Assembly (NCBI GenBank): GCA_964595645.1 | Contig: CAZQQT010000009.1 | Location: 36,619-100,618 of the forward strand | Source of the DNA: an uncultured Thermococci archaeon | Lineage (GTDB): Archaea > Methanobacteriota_B > Thermococci > Methanofastidiosales > B48-G16 | DNA length: 64,000 bases | Reading direction: 5' to 3' | In this document: positions 35,684 through 51,452 of the stretch, one piece after another | Layout of the letters: each line of letters opens with the position of its first letter | Position numbering within the stretch: position 1 is the stretch's first letter | The notes under the pieces: generated by a model | The model's input: the letters and a program-made list of their open reading frames with translations, nothing else | Told to the model about the DNA's origin: nothing | The model's database searches: none | Made by a program: the position numbers and the translations under genes

Positions 35684-36028
35684 AGTTCCACCTTTATCTT
35701 TATAATGTAAAGATATAGACATTCCTCTTTTTAAATCTTTTGGTTTATCGGTTTAAAAACTTGAAGAATGACAATCCAAAATTTTTCATTTTTATTTTTC
35801 TTACAGCGTTTTATTTCGCTTAAATTTTCTTCTATGGAGAAATATATATAATTCAATCCTTAATTATCGTCTTTTTTCTCTCATCATCGATTACTAAGCA
35901 GGATTTCCCCATGTAGATCATTCCCCAAAGAAAGCTAAGAGAACGTGATGCTACTCCAAAAACTTTTAAGATCGTAAAGTTTTTATACTAGGTACGAGGA
36001 AAAAGATACATCACTTCAAAAAGAAGGG

Positions 36029-36331
36029 ATGTTCATGGGGCATAGCTCTCAAAAATATATAGGAAAAGGGTTGAATCAGAAAACAAAGAAATCGTCAAAG
36101 GGCAAGATTTATCTGATTGAAGATAGATGTAAGGGATGCAATCTCTGTATAGAGTTCTGTCCGAAAGAAGTACTAGTGGAATCGGAAAAATTCAATGAAA
36201 AGGGCTACCATCCACCAGAATTAGAGGAAATCCCTGGTGAAAAAGAATGTGTGGGTTGCGGCTACTGTTCTCTTGTCTGTCCGGAGTTTGCTATATTTTG
36301 TGAAGTAGAAAATGAGGAGGAAGATAAATGA
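36029..36331 (+). CDS. korD: 2-oxoacid:ferredoxin oxidoreductase delta subunit (2x[4Fe-4S])
   Basis: CKGCNLCIEFCP, NEKGYHPP, CVGCGYCSLVCPEFAI. Confidence 0.9.
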   Translation: MFMGHSSQKYIGKGLNQKTKKSSKGKIYLIEDRCKGCNLCIEFCPKEVLVESEKFNEKGYHPPELEEIPGEKECVGCGYCSLVCPEFAIFCEVENEEEDK

Positions 36332-37473
36332 AGGGAGTACTTACTGGAACCTATTTTTTGACTGGAAATGACGCCGTTGCAGAAGGAGCAATCAGTGCAG
36401 GATGCAGATTTTTCGCAGGTTATCCAATTACACCCTCAACAGAGATAGCAGAAAGAATTTCAAGGAGATTTCCACAAGTAGAAGGCTCTTATATCCAAAT
36501 GGAGGATGAATTATCATCTATGGCTGCAATACTCGGAGCCTCCTGGGCAGGTGTAAAGAGTATGACTGCCACTAGCGGTCCGGGCTTCAGCCTTATGCAG
36601 GAAAATATTGGGCTCGGTGTAATGCTGGAAACACCCGTTGTTGTGGTGAACGTCCAACGAGGCTCACCCTCCACAGGACTACCCACACTCGTGGGGCAAG
36701 GTGAAGTAATGCAGAGTAAATGGGGGTCTCATGGAGATTACGAGGTGATCGCACTCTCCCCCAACTCACCGCAAGAATGTTTTGATTTAATGATTGAAGC
36801 ATTCAATTATTCAGAAAAATACCGCGTTCCTACATTTTTACTGATGGATGAGTGTGTATCGCATATGTCCGAAAAGGTAGTCATTCCTGAAGAAGAGGAT
36901 ATTAAAGTAATCAATAGAAAAAAACCAAACGTTTCACCAGAGGACTATACGCCGTTCAAACCTGATGACGATCTGATACCTCCTATGGCAGTGGCGGGAG
37001 AGGGATATAAGATCCACGCCACTGGACTGACCCACGACGAGAGGGGATATCCACTTATTGAAGCGGAATGTCAGGAGACTCTAGTAAGGCGCTTGTGCGA
37101 TAAGATCAGAAATCATAAAGATGATATTATTACCCTAAACGAGTACCATGTAGATGATGCCGACGTTGTTGTGGTCTCATTCGGTACAGTCTCGCGAAGT
37201 GCAAAGATGGCGGTTGATCTGGCCCGTGAACAAGGGATAAAGGCGGGCCTTTTGCGCTTGATTACAGTATGGCCTTTCCCAGAGAAGCGGATAAGAGAGA
37301 TGGCAGATACACTCGATGGGTTTGTTGTGGTAGAAATTAACTATGGCCAAGTAACATTAGAGGTGGAACGATCTGCGAAGGGAGCGACTGAAGTACTTCA
37401 TCTACCGTTAATGGGGGGAAGAATCCATACACCAGAAGAAATTCTCAAAGGAATAAAAGAGGTGAGCAAATGA
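36328..37473 (+). CDS. korA: 2-oxoglutarate:ferredoxin oxidoreductase alpha subunit
   Basis: AGYPITPSTE, QMEDE, ATSGPGFSLMQE, QRGSPSTGLPT; substrate inferred from sucCD context. Confidence 0.9.
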   Translation: MKGVLTGTYFLTGNDAVAEGAISAGCRFFAGYPITPSTEIAERISRRFPQVEGSYIQMEDELSSMAAILGASWAGVKSMTATSGPGFSLMQENIGLGVMLETPVVVVNVQRGSPSTGLPTLVGQGEVMQSKWGSHGDYEVIALSPNSPQECFDLMIEAFNYSEKYRVPTFLLMDECVSHMSEKVVIPEEEDIKVINRKKPNVSPEDYTPFKPDDDLIPPMAVAGEGYKIHATGLTHDERGYPLIEAECQETLVRRLCDKIRNHKDDIITLNEYHVDDADVVVVSFGTVSRSAKMAVDLAREQGIKAGLLRLITVWPFPEKRIREMADTLDGFVVVEINYGQVTLEVERSAKGATEVLHLPLMGGRIHTPEEILKGIKEVSK

Positions 37474-38333
37474 CACGAGAACGTGAAGACAGATGTGTGT
37501 ATATGGCTGAATCGCACCCATTGGATAAGTATCTGCGAAAGGAACGACTCCCACATATCTGGTGCAGTGGATGCGGCTGTGGAGATATTCTCACAGCCTA
37601 CGCGGAGGCAATAAAAGAGCTTGAAATGGATCCGGATAAAGTAGGCGTGGTCTCCGGTATTGGATGTATTGGAAGAGCAGCTGGATACCTCAACTTCGAT
37701 TCATTTCACACCACCCATGGAAGGGCAATCCCCTTTGCTACTGGGCTAAAGATTGCGAATCCAGAGCTTGACGTGGCAGTAATCAGCGGAGACGGTGATC
37801 TGGCAGCCATTGGTGGTAATCACCTAATTCATGCAGCGAGGCGTAATATGGACATTTTGGTCCTCTGCTCAAACAACTACACCTACGGTATGACCGGGGG
37901 ACAGTTTTCTCCTACTACACCTATGGAGTCGTTCACCACAACGACGCCCTACGGAAACTTTGAACGCCCCTTTAACCTTGTCAATCTTGCCGCTTCCTCT
38001 GGTGCTCCCTACGTAGCCCGATGGACTTCTCTCCACGTACGACGCCTCAAAAAATCTATAAAGGAAGCCCTACAGAAAAAGGGATTCAGATTCATTGAGA
38101 TACTGACGCCGTGTCCCGTAGGATTCGGAAGAAAAAATAAGATGGGAACGGCAATCGATACCGCGAAGTTCTATCAGAAACACTCAATCATAAAGAATGG
38201 TGCAGATCCGCGAGAGGTGGGTCTTGAAGATCCTACTGGGAAATTTATTATTGGGAAATTCGTGGATGATGAAGAGAAAGAGACATTCCTAGAAGCTAAA
38301 TCCAGGATGTACTCCCAGGTGGTGGAAGAATGA
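37470..38333 (+). CDS. korB: 2-oxoglutarate:ferredoxin oxidoreductase beta subunit
   Basis: PHIWCSGCG, SGIGC, HTTHGRA, TPP motif GDGD...NN, YGMTGGQ. Confidence 0.9.
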   Translation: MTREREDRCVYMAESHPLDKYLRKERLPHIWCSGCGCGDILTAYAEAIKELEMDPDKVGVVSGIGCIGRAAGYLNFDSFHTTHGRAIPFATGLKIANPELDVAVISGDGDLAAIGGNHLIHAARRNMDILVLCSNNYTYGMTGGQFSPTTPMESFTTTTPYGNFERPFNLVNLAASSGAPYVARWTSLHVRRLKKSIKEALQKKGFRFIEILTPCPVGFGRKNKMGTAIDTAKFYQKHSIIKNGADPREVGLEDPTGKFIIGKFVDDEEKETFLEAKSRMYSQVVEE

Positions 38334-38869
38334 GACAGGAAATACGAATCGCTGGATACGGTGGCCAGGGAATCATACTCGCAACTGTAATTGCAGGAAA
38401 GGCCGCTGCAATCTACGAAGGAAAGGAAGCCACTGTAATGGAGAACTACGGACCTGAAGCACGTGGAGGTGCGTGTTCCGGCACTGCCGTGATCGAGGAT
38501 AATGAAGTTGATTACCCATACCTTATGGCCCCTGATGTCATGGTCATTATGTCCCAAAAGTCGTACGATAAGTTCCGACCTGAGTTAAAAAAGGATGGAC
38601 TTCTCATTATTGACGAAGACCTCGTCACACCCAGTGAGGACGAGGATGCAGAGATATACAGAATACCTGCAACACGGTTTGCAGAAGAGCTTGGAAACAA
38701 GATCGTTGCCAACATCATCATGCTCGGATCCCTCACTGCGATTACAGAGTATGTAAATTACGATGCAATGAAATCGGCGATACTAAACACCGTCAAACCA
38801 AAGTTCAAAGAGATCAACAAAAAAGCCTATATCCGTGGATACGAGTACGGGAAGGAGATGAAGAAGTAG
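38330..38869 (+). CDS. korC: 2-oxoacid:ferredoxin oxidoreductase gamma subunit
   Basis: IRIAGYGGQG, YGPEARGG, ANIIMLG. Confidence 0.9.
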   Translation: MRQEIRIAGYGGQGIILATVIAGKAAAIYEGKEATVMENYGPEARGGACSGTAVIEDNEVDYPYLMAPDVMVIMSQKSYDKFRPELKKDGLLIIDEDLVTPSEDEDAEIYRIPATRFAEELGNKIVANIIMLGSLTAITEYVNYDAMKSAILNTVKPKFKEINKKAYIRGYEYGKEMKK

Positions 38870-38880
38870 GGTGATACCCG

Positions 38881-40827
38881 ATGAAAAAAAAGAATGGTGT
38901 CTTCGTTTGCAAGTGCGGTGTAAACATTGCCGGTACTGTTGATGTCGACAAAGTTATTGAAGAAATCTCTAAGTATCCTACGGTGGAACACTGTGAAACG
39001 TACGATTATATGTGCTCTGAACCCGGACAAAAGAAAATTGAAGAAGCGATTAAAGAAAAGGGATTAACAGGCGTGATAGTGGCAGCTTGTTCTCCTTCTA
39101 TGCACGAGGAAACGTTCAGAAACGTCACCGAGGATGCAGATTTGAACCCTTACCTCTGCGAAATCTCAAATATCAGAGAGCAGTGTAGTTGGGTTCATGA
39201 AGATAAAGACAAAGCTACTGAAAAAGCAATACGCATTATAAAAGGCACTATCGAAAAAGTGAACAAGAATGAAGAACTTCATCCCATAAAAGTGCCTGTA
39301 ACAAAAAGATGTCTCGTGATCGGTGCGGGAATCAGCGGGATCCAAGCTGCATTGGATGTGGCAAATAACGGATACGAGGTGTATCTCATAGAGAAAAGCC
39401 CGTCCATCGGCGGTCATATGGCACAGTTATCGGAAACATTTCCCACTCTCGACTGTTCCCAGTGTATTCTCACGCCTAAAATGGTTGAAGTCTCACGACA
39501 TCCCAATATTCATCTTTTAACATACAGTGAGGTCACGGACGTATCAGGATACGTTGGTAATTTCCACGTGAAAATACAGAAAAAACCGAGATACGTGACA
39601 GATGACTGTAACCTCTGTGGGGACTGTGTTGATGTATGTCCGCAGATTACTGTAGACGAGTTTGACCGAGGTCTAACATTGAGGAAAGCCATTTACATTC
39701 CTTTTCCTCAGGCAGTACCTGCCAAGTACGTACTCGATACCGATGCATGTTTAGGAATTAATCCGCTACGATGTGATAAATGTCAGGAGGCCTGTGATGT
39801 CGACGCGATCGATTTCGATATGCAGCCCGAAACGCTTGAAGTAGATGTCGGATCGATCATTATGGCCACGGGTTACGATCTCTATCCTATCGAAGAGATA
39901 CCCGAGTATGGGTATGGAAAGTATCAAGATGTCATTGATGGCCTCCAATTTGAACGGCTGCTCTCCCCTTCCGGCCCCACAAGGGGCGAAGTACGACGAC
40001 CTTCCGACGGAAAGGTTCCGAAAAAAGTTGTATTCATTCAGTGCGTTGGTTCACGGGATCCTGAGTGCCATCTTCCCTACTGCTCCAAGATTTGCTGTAT
40101 GTACACAGGGAAACATGCGATGCTATACAAACATAACGTCCCCGATGGAGAGGCGTATGTGTTTTACATGGACATCCGTGCCGCTGGAAAAGATTACGAA
40201 GAATTTATTCAGCGTGCCACAGATGAGGACCGCGTTATGTATATCCGGGGCAGAGTCTCCAAAATATTTAGAGAAGGAGATACAATAAAGGTCTGGGGTT
40301 CCGATACACTTTCTGGGAAAAAGATCGAAATCGACGCTGATCTTGTAGTGCTCGCCACTGCTATTGTTCCGCGGGAAGAAACACTAGAACTCGCGAAAAA
40401 GCTCAGAATATCACTCGGACCAAACAACTTCTTAAAAGAGGCTCATCCAAAGTTAAAACCTGTAGAGACACTATCTGCCGGTGTCTTCCTCGGAGGAGCT
40501 GCACAGGCGCCCAAAGATATTCCCGACTCTGTTGCTCAAGGGGGTGGTGCGGGGAGCAAGGCAGCAGGAATCCTCTCGTCGGATGAATTGAGTCACGATC
40601 CAACTGTTATCGAAGTAGACGAAAACAAATGCAATGGATGCGGTATATGTGTCAACGTCTGTCCCTACGAAGCCCTTGAACTCAACGAAGAGAAGGGTGT
40701 CGTTGAGGTAAATGAAGTGTTATGTGAAGGATGTGGTACCTGCTCTGCAGCCTGTCCCTCTGGAGCTACACAGCTAAGAAACCTTACCGATGCCCAGATT
40801 GCAAAGATACTAAAGGTGATGATGTGA
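38881..40827 (+). CDS. hdrA: Heterodisulfide reductase subunit A (bifurcating flavoprotein)
   Basis: GVFVCKCG.NI, AACSP, NIREQCSWVH, IGAGISG, TFPTLDC, QCVGSR, YCSKICCMY, FLKEAHPKL, C-terminal ferredoxin. Confidence 0.97.
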   Translation: MKKKNGVFVCKCGVNIAGTVDVDKVIEEISKYPTVEHCETYDYMCSEPGQKKIEEAIKEKGLTGVIVAACSPSMHEETFRNVTEDADLNPYLCEISNIREQCSWVHEDKDKATEKAIRIIKGTIEKVNKNEELHPIKVPVTKRCLVIGAGISGIQAALDVANNGYEVYLIEKSPSIGGHMAQLSETFPTLDCSQCILTPKMVEVSRHPNIHLLTYSEVTDVSGYVGNFHVKIQKKPRYVTDDCNLCGDCVDVCPQITVDEFDRGLTLRKAIYIPFPQAVPAKYVLDTDACLGINPLRCDKCQEACDVDAIDFDMQPETLEVDVGSIIMATGYDLYPIEEIPEYGYGKYQDVIDGLQFERLLSPSGPTRGEVRRPSDGKVPKKVVFIQCVGSRDPECHLPYCSKICCMYTGKHAMLYKHNVPDGEAYVFYMDIRAAGKDYEEFIQRATDEDRVMYIRGRVSKIFREGDTIKVWGSDTLSGKKIEIDADLVVLATAIVPREETLELAKKLRISLGPNNFLKEAHPKLKPVETLSAGVFLGGAAQAPKDIPDSVAQGGGAGSKAAGILSSDELSHDPTVIEVDENKCNGCGICVNVCPYEALELNEEKGVVEVNEVLCEGCGTCSAACPSGATQLRNLTDAQIAKILKVMM

Positions 40828-41249
40828 GTTTTGAACCGAAAATCGTTGCATTCCTCTGTAAATGGTGTTCCTATGCCGGTGCGGATCTGGCCGGTGTGAG
40901 CAGAATGAAGTACAGTCCCAACGTGATACCAATCCGTGTGAACTGCTCAGGCAATGTCAATCCCTTATTTGTACTGAAGGCATTTAAAGAAGGCGCAGAC
41001 GGCGTGCTCATCTCTGGATGTCATCCGGGAGAGTGCCATTATGTGAAAGGAAATATGTTTGCCCGGCGTCGGATGGTCGTGCTCAAAAACTTACTGGAAT
41101 ACATTGGTATCCATCCGGATCGACTGCATATGTCCTGGGTATCCGCATCAGAGGGTTCGAAGTTCGTGGATGTAATCGAAGAAGTCACAAAAAGTGTCAG
41201 AGAACTAGGACCGCAAGAGAAACTCACGAAGGTGGGATTTGATGAGTGA
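40824..41249 (+). CDS. mvhD: MvhD/FlxD [2Fe-2S] subunit
   Basis: FEPKIVAFLCKWCSYAGAD, GADGVLISGCHPGECHY, WVSASEG; GTG start overlaps the hdrA stop. Confidence 0.93.
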   Translation: MSFEPKIVAFLCKWCSYAGADLAGVSRMKYSPNVIPIRVNCSGNVNPLFVLKAFKEGADGVLISGCHPGECHYVKGNMFARRRMVVLKNLLEYIGIHPDRLHMSWVSASEGSKFVDVIEEVTKSVRELGPQEKLTKVGFDE

Positions 41250-42288
41250 TATTGAGAAAGAAATACGAGAAAAGGCGAAAAAACTCCTCGATGAAGAAAA
41301 AATCAAATACATCATTGGATACGAAGAAGGGAGTGACTCCTTCCACGTGTCGCCGTGTTTTGTGAAAAATCCCGATGACGTCGAGAAAATAGTATGGAAT
41401 CCCCGTTGTGTGAATAACCTTGTTGTATACCTTATAGAAGACAAGAAAAAAACGCTGGAGAGAGGTGAAGAACGGGATACCTGCCCAATAGGGATTCTGG
41501 TGAAGGGATGCGACTCGCGCTCACTAGTACAGCTGATAAGCGAGCACAAAATAGATAGAGATGAAGTAGTAGTTTTTGGTATTCCCTGTAATGGTGTGTT
41601 AGATCCGAAAAAATTAGAGAAAATAGCGAAGCAAAAGAACATCCCCAGAGGAGCACTAGTTGAGATGAAAATTCACGAGGAAAATGGCACGTATGTTGGC
41701 GAATACAACGGTGAACGATACGAGTTCCCGAGAGAGGACGCGATCATGGAAAAATGCCGAGATTGTGCCTATCCAAATCCATTGATCGCAGATGAAATCT
41801 TCGGTGAGGAAATCGAGGCAGCGAAGAAAGATTACACAGAGATCGAGGAGATGGAGGAACTCTCTGTTGAAGAACGGTGGGAGTTCTGGTCCAACCAGTT
41901 CTCCAAATGCATACGATGTTCCGCGTGTAAAAACGTGTGCCCAAGCTGCTACTGCAATGAATGTGCTGTTGATCCCATCAATCTTGTCATAGCCCCAGAC
42001 ACATCGTACAAAGAGAAGGCGGAAAAAATGAGATGGTCGGACAGGACCGTCGATCTCTCTGAAAATTTCCTGTTTCATCTCACGCGAATGATGCATATGG
42101 CAGGACGGTGTGTGGACTGTGGAGAGTGTGAACGTGTGTGCCCCATGGACATACCACTTAGATTACTCACGAAAAAACTCGAAAAAGACGTGAAAAAGAT
42201 GTTCAATTACGAGGCAGGGATAGATACCGACGCAGAGCCACTTCTAACAACATTTGAGGAGGATGATCCTGATGAATTCATCAAATAA
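41242..42288 (+). CDS. flxC: FlxC-like (FrhB/FdhB-related) 4Fe-4S protein
   Basis: KGCDSR, CIRCSACKNVCPSCYC, HMAGRCVDCGECERVCP. Confidence 0.78.
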   Translation: MSDIEKEIREKAKKLLDEEKIKYIIGYEEGSDSFHVSPCFVKNPDDVEKIVWNPRCVNNLVVYLIEDKKKTLERGEERDTCPIGILVKGCDSRSLVQLISEHKIDRDEVVVFGIPCNGVLDPKKLEKIAKQKNIPRGALVEMKIHEENGTYVGEYNGERYEFPREDAIMEKCRDCAYPNPLIADEIFGEEIEAAKKDYTEIEEMEELSVEERWEFWSNQFSKCIRCSACKNVCPSCYCNECAVDPINLVIAPDTSYKEKAEKMRWSDRTVDLSENFLFHLTRMMHMAGRCVDCGECERVCPMDIPLRLLTKKLEKDVKKMFNYEAGIDTDAEPLLTTFEEDDPDEFIK

Positions 42289-43312
42289 TGTAAAAAAGAA
42301 ACTCATGATCTCAAAGGAAAAAATAACACAGTTTCTAGAAGGGCTATCGGATTACACAATCTACGCGCCTCACAAAGATAATGACTCAGTTCTTTTCAAA
42401 GTAACAGAAGATATAGATAATATCACTTTTGAGTTCATGAACTCCGTGAAATCGCCAAAACACGTACTGCTGCCGCAGACCGAAACACTGCTCAGAGCCA
42501 CCAACGAAGGAGAAGGTATGAAAGTAGAAGAGCCTGAGTTGGACGAAAAAAATATTGTGTTTGGTATACGGCCGTGCGATGCCAGAGCGATACGGATCTT
42601 GGAGGATGTGTTTTCTGGAGAGTATGATGACCCCTACTATCTTACACGTCAGAAGAATACGATGCTCATAGGACTCGCCTGCAACGATCCTCATAGGAAT
42701 TGTTTCTGCACCTCCGTCGACGGTGCGCCAAACGCCACTGATGGACTGGATATGCTGTGGACGGATATCGGTGAGAAATACTACGTTGAAGTACTCACAG
42801 AAAAGGGGATGAACCTTATCAGTAGTAAGATCTTTACTGACGCTTCTGAAGAAGACGTCCAAAAGAAGGAAAAGGTGCATGAAGAAGCCATTGAGAAAAT
42901 AACAGAAAAACTCGATGCCAAAACAATGGCTGAGAATCTCAAAGAGCTTTTCGACGACGCATACTGGGAAAAGCAGGCGCTCAAATGCCTAAGCTGTGGC
43001 ATCTGTACATATCTCTGTCCCACCTGTTACTGTTTCGACATCACCGATGTGGATTACGGGGGCAAGGTAAAGAGGGCGCGAACCTGGGACTCATGTCAGT
43101 TTCCGAGCTACACTATTCAAACCTCTGGCCATAATCCTCGACCGAACAGATCAAACCGATTGAGAAACAGGATCTATCACAAATATCGATATCATATAGA
43201 TAACTACGATGAACTCGGATGTGTAGGCTGCGGGCGATGTATTACGTACTGTCCAGCTGATATCAATTTAAAAACGATTATAAAAGAACTGGGAGGGAAG
43301 AAAGATGAATGA
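42272..43312 (+). CDS. flxB: FlxB/AsrA-like 4Fe-4S dicluster protein
   Basis: FGIRPCD, CFC, CLSCGICTYLCPTCYCF, WDSC, CVGCGRCITYCP. Confidence 0.8.
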   Translation: MNSSNNVKKKLMISKEKITQFLEGLSDYTIYAPHKDNDSVLFKVTEDIDNITFEFMNSVKSPKHVLLPQTETLLRATNEGEGMKVEEPELDEKNIVFGIRPCDARAIRILEDVFSGEYDDPYYLTRQKNTMLIGLACNDPHRNCFCTSVDGAPNATDGLDMLWTDIGEKYYVEVLTEKGMNLISSKIFTDASEEDVQKKEKVHEEAIEKITEKLDAKTMAENLKELFDDAYWEKQALKCLSCGICTYLCPTCYCFDITDVDYGGKVKRARTWDSCQFPSYTIQTSGHNPRPNRSNRLRNRIYHKYRYHIDNYDELGCVGCGRCITYCPADINLKTIIKELGGKKDE

Positions 43313-44228
43313 AAACCCCTACAGACCGCATAAAGCTGTAATCGAGGAAATAAGACAGGAAACAACAGGTTCACGTGCAATTAAAACATTTAAAGTTTCC
43401 TTTGTAGATAAAGAAGTAAAGAACAATTTTACATTCAAATCAGGACAGGCAGCAATGCTCTCTCTCTTCGGAAAGGGAGAATCCATGATTTCAATCACCT
43501 CACCCCCCACGCGCGATGAGTATCTAGAGTTCAGTGTGATGCGCCAGGGAAAGGTCACTGCGGCGTTGCACGAGCTGGAAGAAGGAGATATCATTGGCAT
43601 ACGAGGACCCTACGGAAATCACTTCCCTCTAGAGGAATGGAAACAGAAAAATCTAATATTCATTGGGGGAGGAATCGGTCAGGCCCCCCTCCGTTCAGTA
43701 TACTTAAATGTACTTGACAACAGGGAGGATTACGGTGATTTAACCATCATTTACGGTGCGAGAACATCCGATGATCTCTCATATAAAGAAGAACTCTCAG
43801 AATTGGAGAAAAGAGATGATGTAAATCTGTATCTCTCCGTTGACTGGAATACAGGGGAAGAGGGTCTTATTGACGAAGAAGCAGAGGAAGGATGGTATAA
43901 GATCAATATAGACAATCCTGAAAAGACAGAGTATTCAGAAGGCACTACTCGGTTCACCGGATTTGTCCCCCAGATTGTGATGGTCACCAAGCCCTCTCCA
44001 GAAAATACCATCGCGCTTACCTGTGGACCTCCCATCATGATCAAGTTTGTTGTTGAGAACCTCAAAAAACTAGGATTTGAGAGTGAACAGATATACACAA
44101 CGCTAGAAATGCGTATGAAATGCGGTATAGGCAAGTGCGGTCGATGTAATATCGGCGATACGTACGTCTGTAAGGATGGTCCTGTGTTCTCGTACGCACA
44201 ACTAGAGGAAATGCCAAATGAGTATTGA
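43305..44228 (+). CDS. flxA: FlxA/AsrB/PyrK-like FAD- and NAD(P)H-binding [2Fe-2S] subunit
   Basis: RGPYGN, GGGIGQAP, CGPPIM, MKCGIGKCGRC, VCKDGPVF. Confidence 0.85.
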   Translation: MNENPYRPHKAVIEEIRQETTGSRAIKTFKVSFVDKEVKNNFTFKSGQAAMLSLFGKGESMISITSPPTRDEYLEFSVMRQGKVTAALHELEEGDIIGIRGPYGNHFPLEEWKQKNLIFIGGGIGQAPLRSVYLNVLDNREDYGDLTIIYGARTSDDLSYKEELSELEKRDDVNLYLSVDWNTGEEGLIDEEAEEGWYKINIDNPEKTEYSEGTTRFTGFVPQIVMVTKPSPENTIALTCGPPIMIKFVVENLKKLGFESEQIYTTLEMRMKCGIGKCGRCNIGDTYVCKDGPVFSYAQLEEMPNEY

Positions 44229-44234
44229 AGAGGA

Positions 44235-44651
44235 ATGATCAAGATGAGCAACAGTATTATAATATCTGGAGAAAAAAAGAAGGACTTCATTAAAAAGGTG
44301 GAGGAGATCAGCGGACAGAATATTATGAAATGTAACCAGTGCGGCAAATGCTCCGCTGGCTGTCCAGTCATTTCACAGATGGATAGTCTTCCGAATCAAG
44401 TTATCCGACTTGTGCAACTCGGTGATGAAAGTGTACTGGAAGAGAATACCATTTGGCTGTGTGCCTCCTGTTTCACCTGCGCAGTCCGCTGTCCAAAGGG
44501 TGTTGATCTGGCGAAGGTCATGGAAGCGCTCCGCCTCCTCACCCTGAGAAAAGATAAGGACCATATTGAGATAGAGGAAATACCACGAGAGGAGTTGGAT
44601 AAGCTCCCACCTATCGCAGTGGTGAGCAACTTCCGTAAAATGACGAGTTGA
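44235..44651 (+). CDS. hdrC: Heterodisulfide reductase subunit C
   Basis: CNQCGKCSAGCP, IWLCASCFTCAVRCPKGVD. Confidence 0.92.
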   Translation: MIKMSNSIIISGEKKKDFIKKVEEISGQNIMKCNQCGKCSAGCPVISQMDSLPNQVIRLVQLGDESVLEENTIWLCASCFTCAVRCPKGVDLAKVMEALRLLTLRKDKDHIEIEEIPREELDKLPPIAVVSNFRKMTS

Positions 44652-44660
44652 GGTGAGTAG

Positions 44661-45548
44661 ATGAAGATACCATATTACCCGGGCTGCACGTTGAAGGCAC
44701 AAGGATTGGGATTTGAAGAATCTGCAGTAGCGGCAGCCAGTGCACTGGATATAGAGATGGAGGAAATGATAAGATGGAACTGTTGTGGTACAGTATTTTC
44801 TCTGGCCAGCGACGATCTCATCCACCATGCCGCAGCCCTTCGTAATCTTATCCGTGTCCAAGAAACAGGCAATGACCGCGTTGTTACCCTGTGTTCCATG
44901 TGCTACAACACATTGAAACGTGTGAATCTAGAAATAAAAAACAACGAGGAGGATTTAGAGAAACTCAATGGATTTATGTACCGTGAAGAAGATTATCTCG
45001 GTGGTGTTACGGTACTGCATCTCTTGGAAATTCTGAGAGATGAGATAGGATTCGATGCAATCGCAAAGAAAGTAAAAAAGCCACTGAAAGATCTGAAGAT
45101 AACTCCATACTACGGATGCCTGCTCACCCGACCGAAGGAAATAGGACTTGATGATTGGGAGGAGCCCACGGTGATGGAAGAACTACTCCGGGCCCTCGGT
45201 GCCACCGTAGTAGATGATCCCTTCCGGGGCGAGTGCTGCGGTTCCTACCATACCGTTACATCGAAGGATCTCATCGCAGAAAGGACACGGATGATAGTTT
45301 CTTCCGCACGGGAACGAGGAGCAGATGCGATCGTCCTCAGCTGCCCGCTCTGTGAGTTTAATCTTGATGCACGGCAGGAGGACACAACGGAGAGGTACAC
45401 GGATTTTGTCGGTCTCCCTGTGCTTTACTTTACGCAGCTTATGGCTCTCTCCCTCGGATGTGAGGAGGAGGTATGTCGATTTGATCTTCACTACGTGGAT
45501 CCACGTCCACTATTAAAAGAAAAAGGTATATTGGAGGAGAAATCATGA
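44661..45548 (+). CDS. hdrB: Heterodisulfide reductase subunit B (CCG domains)
   Basis: YYPGC, WNCCG, LCSMC, YYGC, ECCG, SCPLC. Confidence 0.93.
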   Translation: MKIPYYPGCTLKAQGLGFEESAVAAASALDIEMEEMIRWNCCGTVFSLASDDLIHHAAALRNLIRVQETGNDRVVTLCSMCYNTLKRVNLEIKNNEEDLEKLNGFMYREEDYLGGVTVLHLLEILRDEIGFDAIAKKVKKPLKDLKITPYYGCLLTRPKEIGLDDWEEPTVMEELLRALGATVVDDPFRGECCGSYHTVTSKDLIAERTRMIVSSARERGADAIVLSCPLCEFNLDARQEDTTERYTDFVGLPVLYFTQLMALSLGCEEEVCRFDLHYVDPRPLLKEKGILEEKS

Positions 45549-46237
45549 CGGAAGAGTCCGAAAAAAGAACGATTAGAATATACATAATGGGGAAAGAACA
45601 CAAAGTGCCCGCCGGACTAACAATAATGAAGGCAATGGAGTATGCTGGGTATCAGTTCGTGCGTGGTGCCGGATGCCGGGCAGGATTCTGTGGTGCGTGC
45701 AGTACCGTGTACAGAAAAAAAGGTGATTATAAACTGCACGCCGATTTAGCCTGTCAGACCCGCGCAGAAGATGGCATGTACCTCACTCAGATACCGTTTG
45801 TTCCGGCCAACAAAGCAACGTACGATATCGACGAGATCAAGTTGAAAGGAAATCCTCTACTAACATTTTATCCGGAGATAGGAAAATGTGTAAGTTGTAA
45901 TACATGTACCAAGGCATGTCCTCAGGATCTTGAGGTCATGGATTTTATTCAAGCCGCCCTCAAAAATGATATTGAAGAGGTGGCCACGCTTTCCTTTGAC
46001 TGTATCCAGTGTGGTCTCTGTGCCATTCGATGCCCCTCAGAGATAGCACAGTACCACGTAGCCCAGCTCGCGAGAAGACTCCATGGAAAACACACGAAGA
46101 AATCTGATCATTTGGACAATCGAATTAAAGAAATAAATGAAGGGATGTATGACAAAGAACTCGAGGAATTAGTGACAGCTGATATTGATACCCTCAAGAA
46201 GAGGTATGAGGAGAGAAAAATAGAGGCAGAAGAATAG
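45545..46237 (+). CDS. Fumarate reductase / succinate dehydrogenase Fe-S subunit-like
   Basis: GCRAGFCGAC...LACQT ([2Fe-2S]); CVSCNTCTKACP and CIQCGLCAIRCP. Confidence 0.8.
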   Translation: MTEESEKRTIRIYIMGKEHKVPAGLTIMKAMEYAGYQFVRGAGCRAGFCGACSTVYRKKGDYKLHADLACQTRAEDGMYLTQIPFVPANKATYDIDEIKLKGNPLLTFYPEIGKCVSCNTCTKACPQDLEVMDFIQAALKNDIEEVATLSFDCIQCGLCAIRCPSEIAQYHVAQLARRLHGKHTKKSDHLDNRIKEINEGMYDKELEELVTADIDTLKKRYEERKIEAEE

Positions 46238-46248
46238 GAGGGAAAAAT

Positions 46249-47895
46249 ATGGAATTAATTGATGGTTATCCAAAATACATGCGAAAATCGATTGAAAAAG
46301 TTGAAAGAACGAGAAAAGAACGGTTGGAAACAACACCAAAATCAATGAGTATGGAAGAACGGGAGGAGGTACTAAACAAGTTTCATCCTGATTATAAAGA
46401 AGAAGAAAAACGGCCACTGGCCTTTGGCCCGAACAAAGGAGATGTCGTGATCAATGAGGTCGCAGATCTACTGGAGGCTCATTCTGTTGTCTCTCCAGAC
46501 GAGGTAGATCTCTCTACCATTGATTACGATGTCGATGTGCTCATCATTGGGGGTGGCGGTGCCGGAACAGTTGCAGCACTCTGGGCCAATGGAGAAGGGA
46601 TTGCCACAGAAGACATCCTCATTACCACGAAACTCAGACATGGTGATGCCAACTCGATGATGGCGCAGGGAGGAATTCAAGCCGCAGACAGGTCGGAAGA
46701 CGATCCCATCCTGCACTATCTCGATGTCTTTGGAGGTGGACATTTCAAAAACAAGCCGGAGCTTGTGAAACGGTTGGTGAAGGAAGCACCGTCGATTATC
46801 AAATGGCATGAAGAACTCGGGGTGATGTACGATCGGGATGAAGAAGGAAACTTTATTGAACTTTCCGGTGGCGGCACATCGAGAAATCGACTTCACGCAG
46901 CAAAGGATTACACGGGTATGGAGATCATGCGAACGATTAGAGACGAGGCGAGGAACAGAGAGATTCCTGTGTTGGAGTTCACCTCCGCAGTAGAACTACT
47001 GACAGATGGGAACAGAGTCACCGGTGCTGTGCTGTACAATATGGACACGGAACAGTACTATGTGGTAAGGGCAAAAGCCACGATACTCGCCACAGGAGGC
47101 TTTGGAAGACTTCACATCCAGCAGTTCGCCACCACCAACCATTACGGTGCCACCGCTGATGGACTCGTCCTCGCCTACCACGTTGGTGCCAAACTCAGAG
47201 ATATGGATACTGCCCAGTACCACCCTACTGGTGCAGCGTATCCGGAACAAATTGTTGGATTGCTGATTACTGAGAAGGTTCGTGGACTAGGGGCTCAACC
47301 GGTAAATAAACATGGTGAAACGTTCGTATTTCCGCTGGAACCCCGGGATGTAGAGGCATCATCCATTATCCGGGAGTGTTACGAGAGAGATAACGGTGTA
47401 GAGACCCCCACTGGTATGAAGGGTGTGTGGCTTGATTCGCCCATGATTGAGATCATCCACGGCGAAGGTACCATCGAGAAAAATCTCGGGGCCATGAACA
47501 GGATGTTCACACGGTTTGGCATTGATATGACGAAGGACCCTGTTCTTGTGTTTCCCACACTCCACTACCAAAACGGCGGTGTAGAGATCGACGCGGACGC
47601 CCAAACAACGATACCTGGACTCTTTGCCGGCGGTGAAGTCGAAGGAGGAGTCCATGGGAAGAACAGGTTGATGGGCAATTCACTACTCGATTACAATGTG
47701 TTTGGTAAGACGGCAGGTATTGCTGCTGCCAACTACGCCAAAAAAAATTCTGCTGGGAAGGTCTCGTTGGCTCACGTGGAAACATACGAAAAAAAGCTCA
47801 AAGATGCGGGAGTGAAAACGGAGAGAGAAGCGCCAATGATACTTCCCGAGTACCGGGGAAAAGAAACACTCTCACGAGCTATTGACATTATATAA
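46249..47895 (+). CDS. Soluble fumarate reductase / succinate dehydrogenase flavoprotein-like
   Basis: IIGGGGAG, AQGG, QYHPTG, LITEKVRG, PRD, HYQNGG, HGKNRLMGNSL (dicarboxylate-site residues). Confidence 0.85.
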   Translation: MELIDGYPKYMRKSIEKVERTRKERLETTPKSMSMEEREEVLNKFHPDYKEEEKRPLAFGPNKGDVVINEVADLLEAHSVVSPDEVDLSTIDYDVDVLIIGGGGAGTVAALWANGEGIATEDILITTKLRHGDANSMMAQGGIQAADRSEDDPILHYLDVFGGGHFKNKPELVKRLVKEAPSIIKWHEELGVMYDRDEEGNFIELSGGGTSRNRLHAAKDYTGMEIMRTIRDEARNREIPVLEFTSAVELLTDGNRVTGAVLYNMDTEQYYVVRAKATILATGGFGRLHIQQFATTNHYGATADGLVLAYHVGAKLRDMDTAQYHPTGAAYPEQIVGLLITEKVRGLGAQPVNKHGETFVFPLEPRDVEASSIIRECYERDNGVETPTGMKGVWLDSPMIEIIHGEGTIEKNLGAMNRMFTRFGIDMTKDPVLVFPTLHYQNGGVEIDADAQTTIPGLFAGGEVEGGVHGKNRLMGNSLLDYNVFGKTAGIAAANYAKKNSAGKVSLAHVETYEKKLKDAGVKTEREAPMILPEYRGKETLSRAIDII

Positions 47896-47907
47896 AAGGG
47901 GATATGC

Positions 47908-49035
47908 ATGAAGCTATACGAGTTTGTCGCGAAAAGCGTGTTCGCGGAGCACGGGATTCCGACCCCTGAAGGAACCGTTGTTTCCAGTGAAGAAGATATT
48001 GGTGACATTCAGATATCATTTCCCGTCGCGGTTAAATCGCAGATTCTCACAGGGGGACGAGGAAAGGCAGGAGGAATCAAGTTTGCAACAAACACCGAAG
48101 AGCTAAAAAAAAGTGTTCGTGAACTCCTCGGTGCAACAATAAAAGGGTATCAGGTGGATCAGGTTCTTGTTGAAGAGAAACTTGATATCGATGAAGAGTT
48201 CTATATCGGTGTGACTATCGATAGATCTTCGCGGTGTCCCGTGGCAATCGCAAGCGCCAGTGGAGGTGTAGACATCGAAGAGGTCGCTGAAAAAACGCCA
48301 GAAAGGGTAGTAAAGAAAAAGGTTGATCCTCTCACAGGGCTGAGGGCACACCAAGCAAATTATATAATGAAGAAAATAGGAATGTCGGGGAAAAAGATGT
48401 TGCATGCATCGCAGCTCTTGCAAAAATTGTATACTATATTCGTCCACTACGACGCCGAACTCACTGAGATCAATCCTCTTGTACTGACAAACGACGGCAA
48501 GTTTATCGCGGCAGACGGTCGGCTCAATATTGATAACGCCTCGCTGTACAGGCATGAACAATTTAAAGAGTATAAGGAGAAAGAACTCACCCCCTTAGAA
48601 GTACGTGCCAAAGAAGCAGGACTGTCGTATGTTGAACTGGACGGCAATATTGGCATCCTCGGAAACGGCGCGGGACTTGTGATGGCTACATTGGACAGCG
48701 TGACACTCCACGGAGGGAGACCCGCAAACTTCTGTGATTTGGGAGGCGGCTCGCCACGAGAACGTGTGGTCGAAGGTATCGATATTCTCTTATCTACCCC
48801 AATGGTAGAGGGTGTATTCATCAACATTCTCGGAGGCATTACACGGTGTGATGACGTCGCTGCGGGCATTGTGGAATATCGAAATGAAAAGGGAATCGAT
48901 GTTCCCTTTGTCGTGAGGTTAGTGGGTACCAACGAGAAAGAGGCAGAAAAAATCTGTAAGAAAGCCGAAATTGATCTCCTACCGAGCATGGATAAGGCAT
49001 CCAAACGAATTATCGAACTTGTGGAGGGAGATTAA
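47908..49035 (+). CDS. sucC: Succinyl-CoA synthetase beta subunit
   Basis: MKLYE, GGRGKAGG, EINPL, GNGAGLVMATLD, NILGGITRCD. Confidence 0.95.
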   Translation: MKLYEFVAKSVFAEHGIPTPEGTVVSSEEDIGDIQISFPVAVKSQILTGGRGKAGGIKFATNTEELKKSVRELLGATIKGYQVDQVLVEEKLDIDEEFYIGVTIDRSSRCPVAIASASGGVDIEEVAEKTPERVVKKKVDPLTGLRAHQANYIMKKIGMSGKKMLHASQLLQKLYTIFVHYDAELTEINPLVLTNDGKFIAADGRLNIDNASLYRHEQFKEYKEKELTPLEVRAKEAGLSYVELDGNIGILGNGAGLVMATLDSVTLHGGRPANFCDLGGGSPRERVVEGIDILLSTPMVEGVFINILGGITRCDDVAAGIVEYRNEKGIDVPFVVRLVGTNEKEAEKICKKAEIDLLPSMDKASKRIIELVEGD

Positions 49036-49902
49036 ATGGGTATTTTAGTCGATAAAGATAGTAAGATAATAGTACAGGGGATCACGGGATATCAAGGGAC
49101 ATTTCACACCAAGGAGATGCGTGAGTACGGAACAAATGTTGTTGCCGGTGTGACACCAGGAAAAGGAGGGAGAGAGGTGCATGGAGTACCTGTATACGAT
49201 ACTATTGCCGAGGCGTGTGAAGAACACGATGCAACAGCATCGATATGCTTTGTTCCCAGTCAATTTGCCAAAGACGCACTGTTGGAGGCGTTAGATCATC
49301 ATTTGGACCCGATCACCGTAATCACAGAACATATTCCTGTCCATGACACGATGAAGGCAGTAAAACTCGCACAGAAAAAGAACATTCATATCGTAGGGCC
49401 GAACACCCCTGGAATTATCACTGTTGGAGAATGTAAACTTGGCATTATGCCGTCAAGCGTATTTAATAAGGGAAATATTGGCATCATATCCAGAAGTGGT
49501 ACGCTCACATACGAAATTGCAGCCAATATCAGTGATGCCGGACTAGGCCAGTCCACCTGTATAGGATTAGGTGGTGATCCGATCACCGGACTCAACTTCA
49601 TTGAACTCCTTGAATTATTTGAAAAAGATGACGATACTGATGCAGTGGTGATGATCGGTGAGATAGGTGGTAGAAGTGAGGAAGATGCAGCGGAGTACAT
49701 CAAAGAGTCCATCAGTAAGCCGATAGTTGCGTATATCGCTGGAAGGACAGCGCCACCAGGCAAGAGGATGGGACACGCAGGTGCAATTATCAGTGGGAGT
49801 ACTGGCACTGCAGAAAGCAAGATCAACGCACTGGAAGATGCCCATGTAGATGTCGCAAAGTTTCCCTATGAAGTACCTGATCTTTTAAAAGAATATGTAT
49901 AG
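49036..49902 (+). CDS. sucD: Succinyl-CoA synthetase alpha subunit
   Basis: [27 protein letters not shown] (phospho-His). Confidence 0.96.
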
Positions 49903-49920
49903 ATATATGGTGAAATCATT

Positions 49921-50790
49921 ATGGTAAAAAGAACTGAAATTGAAAAAAATCTTGTAGAGGCAATTAGAAAGGCAGAGACTGAGCTTCCTCCTGATGTAGT
50001 AAACGCACTAAAAGACGCAAGAAAACGTGAGGAAGAAGGTAGCGTGGCAAAAAGTCAGTTTGACGCTATTTTAAAAGATATTGAGGTATCGAAAAAAGAG
50101 AAATTACCGCTCTGTCAGGATACGGGAACACAAACATTTTTTGTCACGATAGGGACCGAATTTAAAGAAATAGAACTGCTGAAACCCGCAATCACAAATG
50201 CCGTACGAACAGCAACAGACGAGGTCCCGCTGAGACCGAACACCGTTGACCCGTTCGCCGAGACTAATCCTGGAGATAACACAGGACGGTATATCCCCAA
50301 TATCATCTGGGATCTTGAGGAAGGAGATAAGGTAACAATTGACATCCTTCCAAAAGGAGGGGGCGGAGAGAACATGAGTGCACTGAAGATGCTCAATCCC
50401 ACAGAAGGTATTGAAGGTGCGAAGAAATTTATTATTGACCACGTTGCGTGGTGCGGTGGGAAACCGTGTCCTCCTACCGTCTTGGGAGTGTGTATCGGTG
50501 GAGGCGCAGACCTTGCTATGCGACTGGCAAAAAAAGCGCTGATCAGAAAAGTCGGCGAACGACATCCAGATGAAAAAATCGCAACGCTAGAGGAGGAGCT
50601 CCTCGAAACGGTTAACTCAATAGGCATCGGACCCATGGGGCTCGGTGGAAACACTACGGTACTAGACATTCATATTGAATGGGCACACAGACACCCCGCG
50701 TCCTTCCCTCTGGGCATTATCACCCAGTGTTGGGCTGATAGACGCGCACGGCTTACGATTCATAACGACGGTAGTATGGAGGTGTGTTAA
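49921..50790 (+). CDS. Class I Fe-S fumarate hydratase alpha subunit (Fum/Ttd family)
   Basis: PLCQDTG, PLRPN, KGGGGEN, PCPP, GPMGLGG, QCWA; fumarase by context. Confidence 0.88.
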   Translation: MVKRTEIEKNLVEAIRKAETELPPDVVNALKDARKREEEGSVAKSQFDAILKDIEVSKKEKLPLCQDTGTQTFFVTIGTEFKEIELLKPAITNAVRTATDEVPLRPNTVDPFAETNPGDNTGRYIPNIIWDLEEGDKVTIDILPKGGGGENMSALKMLNPTEGIEGAKKFIIDHVAWCGGKPCPPTVLGVCIGGGADLAMRLAKKALIRKVGERHPDEKIATLEEELLETVNSIGIGPMGLGGNTTVLDIHIEWAHRHPASFPLGIITQCWADRRARLTIHNDGSMEVC

Positions 50791-50791
50791 A

Positions 50792-51376
50792 ATGGAACAC
50801 CATATAAAAACACCTATTCAGAAAGAGGAGATACAAAAGCTGGAATTGGGAGATACAGTATATATTTCTGGTAATATATTTACTGCGCGCGATGCAGCGC
50901 ATACAAAAATGCTTGAACTGCACGAAAAAAAGGAACCTATACCATTCAATCCCGGAGAAATGGCAATGTTCCATTGTGGTCCACTGGTAAAAAAAATTGA
51001 TGGATCGTATACTGTGATATCTGCAGGACCAACGACGAGCGCCCGACTCACCTCCATCGAACCACCGTTCATGCGTGCCTTCGGCACGAAAGTGGTAATC
51101 GGGAAGGGAGGAATGGGTACCAAAACAGTTGACGCCATGAAGGAACTTGGCGCCGTGTACCTCTCGTACCCAGGCGGCGTCGGTGCACTTGCTGCAGAGA
51201 GAATAACGAACGTAGAGGATGTATACTGGCTTGACGAACTGGGTATGCCGGAGGCAGTCTGGCTCCTGAACGTCGAACGGTTTGGCCCCATGATTGTCGG
51301 AATAACCAAAGGAAAATCGCTGTACGATGAAGTAGAGAAAGAAGTTAAAAAAAGAATGGCAAAAATACAAAAATAA
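50792..51376 (+). CDS. Class I fumarate hydratase beta subunit
   Basis: TARDAAH, HCGP, AGPTTSAR, IGKGGM, LGMPEA. Confidence 0.88.
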   Translation: MEHHIKTPIQKEEIQKLELGDTVYISGNIFTARDAAHTKMLELHEKKEPIPFNPGEMAMFHCGPLVKKIDGSYTVISAGPTTSARLTSIEPPFMRAFGTKVVIGKGGMGTKTVDAMKELGAVYLSYPGGVGALAAERITNVEDVYWLDELGMPEAVWLLNVERFGPMIVGITKGKSLYDEVEKEVKKRMAKIQK

Positions 51377-51399
51377 ACGTGTAGGTACAGTTCTATGAA

Positions 51400-51423: not shown

Positions 51424-51452
51424 ATGCGAGCGAATAAGCAAAATTAAAGAAA

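Follow-up and report, generated by a model that had tools for sequence, protein, structure and literature searches.

Gene clusters that combine Hdr and Flx electron-transfer genes with a soluble fumarate reductase have been described in several bacteria. In tubeworm symbionts, among them Ca. Endoriftia persephone and that of Escarpia, and in Thioflavicoccus mobilis, korABCD and tfrAB are interspersed with flxABCD-hdrABC (Rubin-Blum et al. 2019, PMC6315080), and in Ca. Endoriftia persephone the kor/flx-hdr cluster is co-expressed, tfrAB excepted (Mitchell et al. 2024, PMC11636981). The 'succinate operon' of Pseudoclostridium thermosuccinogenes comprises fumarase, seven Flx-Hdr genes and two fumarate reductase genes, is up about 4-fold under CO2 limitation and is transcriptionally regulated as a unit (PMC7282089); a Flx-Hdr-coupled, ferredoxin-reducing fumarate reductase has been proposed for it (Koendjbiharie and van Kranenburg 2019 preprint, cited in PMC7282089). 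Here, we describe a comparable archaeal locus, a 15.3 kb operon of 17 genes in the order korDABC-hdrA-mvhD-flxCBA-hdrCB-frdBA-sucCD-fumAB. It occupies positions 36029-51376 on the + strand of a 64,000-nt stretch of DNA (the window) from the genome of an uncultured Thermococci archaeon (the host).

Judged by its published description, the Endoriftia-type reductive tricarboxylic acid (TCA) cluster shares with the host operon a four-subunit Kor, Flx-Hdr and a soluble Tfr/Frd AB pair on one strand, and the hypothesis attached to it is the same, namely NADH-driven bifurcation to fumarate reductase and 2-oxoglutarate oxidoreductase, either direct or via ferredoxin and a thiol. The Endoriftia-type cluster belongs to autotrophic bacteria, in which it is set among aclAB, acn, idh, mdh, pntAB and rnf, whereas the host operon is archaeal, carries sucCD and a class I fumarase within it, and has no ATP-citrate lyase or Mdh; citrate lyase, aconitase and isocitrate dehydrogenase (IDH) are encoded elsewhere in the host genome. 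Like the host operon, the P. thermosuccinogenes operon combines a fumarate hydratase with seven Flx-Hdr genes and two genes for a fumarate reductase, but it has no kor or sucCD, has a fermentative role and belongs to a Firmicute.

TfrAB of Methanothermobacter (Heim et al. 1998) is likewise a soluble, quinone-independent fumarate reductase. TfrB is one polypeptide in which 2Fe-2S/4Fe-4S domains are joined to two CCG domains, whereas the CCG module of the host is a separate HdrB accompanied by an additional HdrC. TfrA (~546 aa) has a C-terminal domain, whereas the host FrdA has a 92-aa N-terminal extension and lacks Succ_DH_flav_C, and the donors of TfrAB are CoM-SH and CoB-SH, whereas neither MCR nor the coenzyme M (CoM) marker ComA was detected in the host genome. 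Unlike complex II, the host operon includes no membrane anchor, no 8-alpha-histidyl FAD His and no [3Fe-4S] motif. The methanogen complexes MvhAGD-HdrABC (5odc) and FdhAB-MvhD-HdrABC-Fmd (7bkb) share with it an HdrA-MvhD-HdrBC core served by exchangeable donors, and many relatives of the host operon employ MvhAG as the donor. In those complexes, however, CoM-S-S-CoB is the acceptor and is reduced at HdrB, whereas no such acceptor was found in the host and FrdBA adjoins HdrB. The 7bkb complex is a precedent for direct low-potential electron transfer to a CO2-reducing partner.

The same Flx domain set is encoded with HdrABC in the FlxABCD-HdrABC cluster of Desulfovibrio vulgaris (Ramos et al. 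2015), where the proposed acceptor is DsrC, which is absent from the host genome, and where the linkage extends to an alcohol dehydrogenase. The host order differs from the D. vulgaris order given there in having hdrA upstream and hdrCB downstream of flx. A soluble, NADH-dependent, five-subunit fumarate reductase of Hydrogenobacter, FrdABCDE, was reportedly described by Miura and co-workers in 2008 and is said to serve the reductive TCA cycle; we know of no HdrA-type bifurcating subunit in FrdABCDE and of no report that it co-reduces ferredoxin. A subunit list is given for FrdABCDE of Aquifex (PMC10052474). Archaeal studies have noted Hdr-syntenic 'Tfr' genes (PMC9635834), and the Culexarchaeia paper describes a KOR-SucCD-TfrA-FumAB hub, in both cases without proposing the mechanism considered here. 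For bacteria, the concept has been published before, with the Kor link and direct electron delivery both part of it (PMC6315080 Supplemental Note 3; PMC11636981; PMC7282089). An initial annotation of the window, made from the sequence, had mentioned that Hdr-linked succinate/fumarate coupling was proposed in some bacteria, which these papers bear out. Its hint at novelty holds in that no archaeal case has been characterised, nor one in any domain, but not for the idea, which is in print for bacteria.

Our preferred reading of the host operon, to which we give about an even chance (a probability of roughly 0.5), is that it encodes a soluble module for a single pathway, the reductive conversion of malate to 2-oxoglutarate, in which Flx-Hdr would bifurcate electrons to fumarate and ferredoxin. 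Fumarase would convert malate to fumarate. FlxABC would take electrons two at a time from NAD(P)H and pass them via MvhD to the FAD of HdrA, which would split each pair, sending one electron downhill and one uphill to ferredoxin. The downhill electron would travel through HdrC and the CCG clusters of HdrB to FrdB and on to a non-covalent FAD in FrdA, where fumarate would be reduced to succinate. SucCD would convert succinate to succinyl-CoA, which KorDABC would carboxylate to 2-oxoglutarate with the ferredoxin reduced by HdrA. The account would balance, with one reduced ferredoxin (2 e−) made per fumarate and one used per succinyl-CoA carboxylated. Complex formation, bifurcation, electron path, NADH or NADPH as donor and direction are all read from sequence and gene context, and the cofactor domains and Cys motifs for the proposed electron path are all present and conserved.

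Ferredoxin has a potential of about −450 mV. The E0' values are +33 mV for fumarate and −320 mV for NADH (PMC5861303). Arithmetic from +33, −320 and about −450 mV gives roughly −43 kJ per fumarate for the net reaction, which makes the reverse, a confurcating oxidation of succinate, unfavourable. Since fumarate as the acceptor makes ferredoxin a product, the interleaving of kor with these genes is most simply explained by Kor consuming that ferredoxin. The initial annotation had proposed a soluble, quinone-free NADH:fumarate/ferredoxin bifurcation and kept the reverse as an option. The former is partly supported by the anatomy of the proteins, the linkage, the swapping of donors, the sole Hdr set and the predicted non-covalent FAD, with NADH widened to NAD(P)H on the kinship of FlxA; the latter is thermodynamically poor.

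Listing of open reading frames (ORFs) and Pfam and NCBIfam profile scans gave 17 consecutive co-oriented genes (Table 1), which span the full malate-to-2-oxoglutarate enzyme set. With the most plausible start codons, all 16 junctions fall between −26 and +18 nt and seven are overlaps, and a Shine-Dalgarno-type motif resembling GGAGG or GGTGA lies ahead of every start codon in the operon. Four starts were revised, namely mvhD (GTG 40824, overlapping the stop of hdrA), flxC (ATG 41242), flxB (ATG 42263 or 42272) and fumB (ATG 50792, preceded by a GGAGGTG motif). The korD/korA junction is an ATGA overlap. A TATA-like box, TTTTTATACT, is located at 35980-35989, about 44 nt 5' of the korD ATG, and the next gene past the operon, a GNAT gene (51453-51995, minus strand), is convergent to it. 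The spacing suggests a single transcript for all 17 genes. Every ORF of the operon was assigned to a soluble family, with no membrane anchor, hydrogenase or formate dehydrogenase (FDH) large subunit or DsrC among the 17, and gaps of at most 18 nt leave no space for an anchor or other extra gene. These results reproduce what the initial annotation had stated of the named families and their order, the overlapping or near-abutting ends, the closing T-tract and the lack of an SdhC/D anchor, hydrogenase or FDH large subunit and DsrC.

Table 1. Positions in the window of the operon genes and of the putative signals that flank them.
Feature	Position	Strand	Features and profile evidence
Putative promoter-bearing spacer	35723..36028	+	306 nt, AT-rich; promoter suggested by sequence reading
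korD, delta subunit of 2-oxoacid:ferredoxin oxidoreductase	36029..36331	+	2x[4Fe-4S]; Pfam Fer4_7/Fer4
korA, alpha subunit	36328..37473	+	POR_N and PFOR_II
korB, beta subunit	37470..38333	+	TPP-binding; TPP_enzyme_C
korC, gamma subunit	38330..38869	+	Pfam POR
hdrA, bifurcating-type flavoprotein	38881..40827	+	NCBIfam HdrA2, 827 bits, model positions 2-637 (cut-off 1100)
mvhD/flxD, adaptor to HdrA	40824..41249	+	[2Fe-2S]; FlpD, 181 bits
FlxC-like Fe-S protein, FdhB/FrhB-related	41242..42288	+	Fer4 and weak FrhB_FdhB_C
FlxB-like Fe-S protein, sulfhydrogenase beta/AsrA-related	42263..43312	+	Fer4_22; ShyB, 210 bits
FlxA-like electron-input subunit	43305..44228	+	NAD(P)H-, FAD- and [2Fe-2S]-binding; NAD_binding_1, FAD_binding_6, DHODB_Fe-S_bind
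hdrC	44235..44651	+	2x CxxCxxCxxxCP (two [4Fe-4S] motifs)
hdrB	44661..45548	+	two intact CCG motifs, for two non-cubane [4Fe-4S] clusters
frdB-like Fe-S subunit	45545..46237	+	230 aa; [2Fe-2S] and two [4Fe-4S] motifs
frdA-like flavoprotein	46249..47895	+	dicarboxylate-site residues kept; Asn135; N-terminal extension
sucC, ADP-forming succinyl-CoA synthetase beta subunit	47908..49035	+	ATP-grasp_2, Ligase_CoA
sucD, succinyl-CoA synthetase alpha subunit	49036..49902	+	CoA_binding, Ligase_CoA
fumA, class I (Fe-S) fumarate hydratase alpha subunit	49921..50790	+	Pfam Fumerase, 327 bits
fumB, class I fumarate hydratase beta subunit	50792..51376	+	Fumerase_C, 140 bits
Likely archaeal terminator	51402..51423	+	oligo-T runs 26-47 nt past the fumB stop; suggested by sequence reading

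FrdB contains two full CxxCxxCxxxCP motifs and neither a [3Fe-4S] motif nor a CCG domain, the second [4Fe-4S] motif standing at the place of the [3Fe-4S] in quinone-linked enzymes, and its 12 Cys are invariant across 35 homologues. The TfrB model matches FrdB, HdrC and HdrB in pieces, with FrdB scoring 38.6 bits where the cut-off is 385. Methanogens therefore have these parts in a naturally fused form, and FrdB, HdrC and HdrB resemble a split and enlarged TfrB, not a member of the TfrB family.

FrdA shows 67-77% full-length identity to proteins of many uncultured archaea and bacteria. It has the FAD and capping-domain fold, the His/Arg set and the proton-donor Arg of the fumarate reductase/succinate dehydrogenase flavoprotein superfamily. 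Residues H325, T341, E342, R345, H439 and R473 are invariant in a 20-sequence alignment and align with SdhA motifs, and the best structural match of the predicted structure (AlphaFold2 model, predicted TM score 0.81) was E. coli FrdA (1kf6_A, E 2.8e-27, Foldseek). L-aspartate oxidase has the same active-site residues, so the substrate assignment also leans on gene context. Among 20 homologues, an invariant Asn135 aligns with the flavinylated (covalent-FAD) His of SdhA/FrdA. In E. coli, FrdA His44 variants with non-covalent FAD allow fumarate reduction and not succinate oxidation, and the missing His in the host FrdA thus favours fumarate reduction. Residues 1-92 (46249-46524) make up an N-terminal extension that is conserved, some 20 of its positions being invariant, and that is predicted to be a small helical domain (predicted local distance difference test score ~75-91), and the usual C-terminal helical domain (Succ_DH_flav_C) is absent. 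TfrA (NF004900) was the best NCBIfam match, at 329 bits against a cut-off of 718 and over model positions 6-429 only. A further TfrA-like flavoprotein, an orphan of canonical length (572 aa), is encoded on contig C6 of the host genome (L101:3682-5400, + strand); it scores 491 bits on the TfrA model, has Succ_DH_flav_C and is flanked by genes for an M24 peptidase and an AMP-binding enzyme, with no Fe-S or CCG partner nearby.

The three Hdr subunits carry the motif set of methanogen HdrABC: two CX31-39CCX35-36CXXC motifs in HdrB, two [4Fe-4S] motifs in HdrC, and in HdrA a FAD domain with inserted and C-terminal ferredoxin domains. Across 35 homologues, the eight Cys of HdrC are invariant and the motif Cys of HdrB are invariant or almost so. 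Scores stayed below the equivalog cut-offs for HdrA2 (827 versus 1100 bits), HdrB (168 versus 345) and HdrC (64.5 versus 160), and HdrB also gave 141 bits on the SdhE model of methylmenaquinol:fumarate reductase. The FlxA/B/C/MvhD set, assigned at the level of domains, is encoded together with HdrA, HdrB and HdrC. The FlxA-like protein is ShyC/HydG/AsrB-like and closest in NCBIfam to the gamma subunits of NADPH-type sulfhydrogenases, so the donor is best written NAD(P)H, not NADH. Among solved structures, the FlxC-like protein comes closest to FdhB of the Fdh-MvhD-Hdr-Fmd supercomplex (7bkb_E, E 2e-27), a kinship that fits a donor-side adaptor role toward MvhD and HdrA. At loci L012, L013, L027, L038, L069, L072, L075, L078 and L079 of the comparison below, a FlxC-like protein accompanies hdrA-mvhD without flxA or flxB; its role may be that of an adaptor on the donor side, or it may itself be a donor.

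The korDABC genes encode a complete alpha/beta/gamma/delta set of the 2-oxoacid:ferredoxin oxidoreductase family. KorA scored 578 bits on NCBIfam PRK08659, above the cut-off of 411, and 413 bits on the 2-oxoglutarate synthase alpha model, whose cut-off is 579. The presence of sucCD in the same operon points to 2-oxoglutarate/succinyl-CoA as the substrate pair. SucC scored 448 bits on PRK00696 (cut-off 370).

FrdA relatives were sought in one genome per GTDB species, and at least 596 species-representative genomes, spread over more than 20 phyla of Archaea and Bacteria, proved to carry the subfamily. The best 80 of these (55-73% FrdA identity) were analysed as loci and annotated by phmmer, with the host operon proteins and MvhA and MvhG of locus L001 as queries; many loci are cut by contig ends, and 35 form a full-flank subset, in which the contig extends for 9 kb or more upstream and for 5 kb or more downstream. 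Archaeal hosts among the best 80 were Theionarchaea, Thermoplasmata, Thermococci, Heimdall-, Thor-, Borr-, Bathy- and Culexarchaeota and Desulfurococcales, and bacterial hosts were WOR-3, Thermotogae, Chloroflexota, Bipolaricaulota, Aminicenantes, Bacillota, Spirochaetota, Cloacimonadota and others. Linked to frdA were frdB (78/80 loci), hdrB or hdrC (60/80; 31/35 full-flank), hdrA (54/80; 30/35), korA with korB (34/80; 21/35), fumA (11/80; 3/35) and sucCD (8/80; 3/35). The linkage on which the initial annotation had built is thus conserved, hdrA and kor being present in 30 and 21 of the 35 full-flank loci. Gene order is permuted: kor lies immediately upstream of hdrA in 20 loci and immediately downstream of frdA in 20. 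As the same genes co-occur in dozens of unrelated genomes in permuted orders, their linkage is far above chance.

Donors alternated among the loci. FlxAB was linked to frdA in 16/80 loci (10/35 full-flank) and MvhA in 19/80 (8/35), and none of the 80 had both. On a maximum-likelihood tree of 84 FrdA sequences, the Flx/Mvh label changes at least six times, at least five of these changes being forced by well-supported branches, and the Archaea/Bacteria label changes at least seven times. Such alternation is expected if Hdr-FrdAB acts as an acceptor module to which one mid-potential donor or another can be attached. At L004, L014, L026, L037, L042, L046 and L070, kor, hdrA(-mvhD), hdrCB and frdBA were clustered without a Flx or Mvh donor; the donor gene of such clusters is either elsewhere in the genome or of another kind. 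The host operon is the most complete single-operon version among the 85 loci examined. No other locus carries all modules, the arrangement is unique within this set, and none of the 80 other loci has a flxA-hdrC, frdA-sucC or sucD-fumA junction.

The sequence was matched in full only by two DNA sequencing runs of a microbial-mat metagenome, which may be its source, and by no RNA run. The host genome (1.97 Mb in 14 contigs, 99.96% complete) was searched for paralogues and for alternative acceptors. By phmmer with the operon proteins, HdrA, MvhD, HdrC, HdrB, FrdB and fumarase are single-copy, and a whole-genome CCG search returned HdrB as the only CCG-domain protein. Searches for MCR (MCR_alpha) and ComA, which did not take in CoB synthesis or other routes to CoM, found neither, and DsrC (PF04358) was absent from the whole genome. 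With a sole Hdr set and no MCR, ComA or DsrC found, fumarate is the only evident high-potential acceptor, and the host is predicted to be a non-methanogenic member of the Theionarchaea-containing order. Two [NiFe] hydrogenase large subunits are encoded, one within a group 3b-type cluster (G000:C5:142755-146765) in which the beta (FlxB-like) and gamma (FlxA-like) parts are fused in an ORF of about 640 aa; this fused subunit is the closest paralogue of the operon FlxB and FlxA.

Citrate synthase (PF00285) was not found in the host genome. Of the genes that the initial annotation had thought worth looking for there, mcr, dsrC, mdh, citrate synthase and, for CoM synthesis, ComA were not found, and citrate lyase genes were present. 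The latter lie on contig C7 (L100:6094-11976, + strand) in a cluster of aconitase, CitD-like, citE, citF and IDH-like genes, with aconitase (940 bits) and citF (612 bits) both above cut-off. From its gene content, we take this cluster to be the other TCA half, with citrate lyase replacing citrate synthase or ATP-citrate lyase. The CitD-like ORF (96 aa) seemingly lacks the usual prosthetic-group serine after the AGT motif. Some 6 kb downstream of the operon, the window also contains an AMP-forming acetyl-CoA synthetase gene (ACAS_N, AMP-binding; 57137-59110), whose product could re-activate acetate freed by citrate lyase.

Several observations weigh against the preferred reading. No biochemical characterisation of an electron-bifurcating fumarate reductase was found in the literature for any domain of life. 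In Endoriftia, tfrAB departs from the expression pattern of the remaining cluster (PMC11636981). Among the loci compared here, kor is absent from about 40% of the full-flank set, and 17 of these 35 have no linked donor. A search for longer FrdB forms yielded FrdB-HycI and FrdB-FrdA-like proteins only and no FrdB-HdrB fusion within the subfamily, which is weak evidence. HdrB retains both complete CCG motifs, the disulfide-reducing site in methanogen Hdr, so that a thiol intermediate has to be considered. In the host genome, no malate dehydrogenase was found with the Ldh_1_N and Ldh_2 models; oxaloacetate from citrate lyase would thus have no evident route to malate, and malic enzyme (C3:5177-5575 region) is the only link of malate to pyruvate and central carbon. 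The genome also encodes glutamate dehydrogenase and a second korABC-sucCD-korD cluster (G000:C3:196260-200988, L099:6261-10989, minus strand), in which KorA scores 460 bits on the same 2-oxoacid:acceptor oxidoreductase model and SucC is above the succinate-CoA ligase cut-off; 2-oxoglutarate could therefore be drawn from amino acids or be channelled into them. Of the two Kor-SucCD sets, one may serve anabolism and the other catabolism.

The last of these points lead to a reading in which the same enzyme is a fermentative electron sink: it would re-oxidise NAD(P)H with fumarate from malate or aspartate and yield additional reduced ferredoxin, while Kor and SucCD would run oxidatively from 2-oxoglutarate through succinyl-CoA to succinate and ATP, both branches ending as excreted succinate and all reduced ferredoxin passing to hydrogenase or Nfn for energy conservation. 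Glutamate dehydrogenase and the [NiFe] hydrogenase large subunits, including that of the group 3b enzyme with the fused beta-gamma subunit, are present, SucCD is ADP-forming and reversible, fermentative succinate formation with ferredoxin reduction is the role proposed in P. thermosuccinogenes, and the Culexarchaeia authors interpreted KOR-SucCD-TfrA-FumAB as a protein-fermentation hub. An oxidative Kor, however, leaves the frequent interleaving of kor with hdrA and frdA unexplained, the separate korABC-sucCD-korD cluster could already cover catabolism, and the published kor-linked bacterial cases lie within reductive TCA clusters. We regard this reading as possible but rather unlikely. Running the whole pathway oxidatively, from 2-oxoglutarate to malate or pyruvate with succinate and Kor-reduced ferredoxin reducing NAD(P)+ through a reversed HdrA, would also be stoichiometrically balanced (one ferredoxin per succinate), and malic enzyme could carry malate to pyruvate. 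It appears very improbable to us: it is the reverse of a reaction of about −43 kJ per mol under standard conditions and would need extreme metabolite ratios, FrdA lacks the covalent FAD required for succinate oxidation in the enzymes studied, and the Mvh-type homologues would have to make H2 from succinate, which is still less favourable.

The intact and conserved CCG motifs bear on whether electrons reach fumarate through a thiol, with HdrCB-FrdBA acting as a split Tfr-like thiol:fumarate reductase and a thiol/disulfide pair or carrier protein shuttling between the parts, as CoM and CoB do between Tfr and Mvh-Hdr in methanogens. The hdrC-hdrB-frdB-frdA core stands alone in Methanofastidiosia and Theionarchaea-named genomes, and the option was listed by Rubin-Blum et al., with a DsrC-like carrier mentioned by Mitchell et al. 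(PMC11636981). Yet the genome has a single HdrB/HdrC pair, whose one site would need both to generate the disulfide and to use it up, FrdB lacks a CCG domain of its own, and MCR, ComA and DsrC were not found in a search that did not extend to other thiols such as CoA or lipoyl proteins; we consider a thiol shuttle improbable. A direct wire to fumarate is supported over such a shuttle by the missing flavinylated His, the replaced [3Fe-4S], the interchangeable donors and the lack of any other Hdr or disulfide system among those searched for. The genes could also be neighbours whose products form no complex, FrdAB being fed by free ferredoxin or another carrier and Flx-Hdr serving a different acceptor, and 4 of the 35 full-flank loci do have frdBA without any nearby hdr gene. 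This has a slim chance at best, given that hdrB lies directly upstream of frdB in 40/80 loci and hdrC-hdrB are paired in 47/80, that Hdr and Frd stay together across donor swaps, and that searches for CCG, MCR, ComA and DsrC found no other Hdr acceptor system in the host genome.

The preferred reading, bifurcation to fumarate and ferredoxin with Kor consuming the latter, may be extended by analogy with the Fmd arm of the methanogen Fdh-Hdr-Fmd supercomplex. Kor would then be docked on Hdr-Flx-Frd and receive electrons from HdrA at KorD without free ferredoxin, the whole machine catalysing 2 NAD(P)H + fumarate + succinyl-CoA + CO2 -> succinate + 2-oxoglutarate + CoA. The operon, the aconitase-citDEF-IDH cluster, malic enzyme and AMP-forming acetyl-CoA synthetase would together make up a quinone-free, citrate-lyase-type reductive TCA route that would dispense with ATP-citrate lyase, malate dehydrogenase and quinones. 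We think this extension unlikely. Direct channelling has already been suggested for bacteria, and no proposal of an archaeal citrate-lyase variant was found in the literature.

The distribution of the operon among close relatives is patchy. The operon, and with it FrdA, is missing from all five other genomes of the host family, and the genus-mate has no CCG protein whatsoever; its contig (G005) ends at the GNAT gene and does not cover the operon site. In a family-mate (L122, G001:C17, 4284-8345), the Lrp/AsnC-like and pyrB orthologues are separated by only 2.6 kb, a space taken up by NUDIX and SAICAR-synthetase-like genes. The window region 35228-52420 is therefore a variable site, holding the 17-gene operon with the GNAT and tRNA-binding genes, and the absence of the operon from the orthologous site marks it as a lineage-specific cassette there. 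Its G+C content (46.0%) compared with that of host-genome windows of equal size (43.2 ± 2.4%) gave no signal of recent transfer. The divergent Lrp/AsnC-type gene (35228-35722) was considered as a dedicated regulator and dropped, its orthologue being in the same place in the operon-less family-mate; it is probably not the operon's own regulator. Within the host order, three layouts occur: hdrCB-frdBA alone, hdrA-mvhDGA-hdrCB-frdBA (the Mvh type) and the Flx form of the host.

Many anaerobes that are neither methanogens nor sulfate reducers carry 'orphan' Hdr complexes lacking a known acceptor. If fumarate fills that role, a very widespread enzyme would account for the supply of low-potential ferredoxin from NAD(P)H or H2 in these organisms, with no need for membranes or quinones, and would also account for the means by which the cost of the two most demanding reductive steps of the reverse TCA cycle is met. 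The host offers a clean test case, as its malate-to-2-oxoglutarate enzymes are encoded in one operon and no competing Hdr, Hdr substrate system or citrate synthase was found in its genome. The underlying idea is not new, and the value of the host operon lies in its being a well-defined construct for biochemistry.

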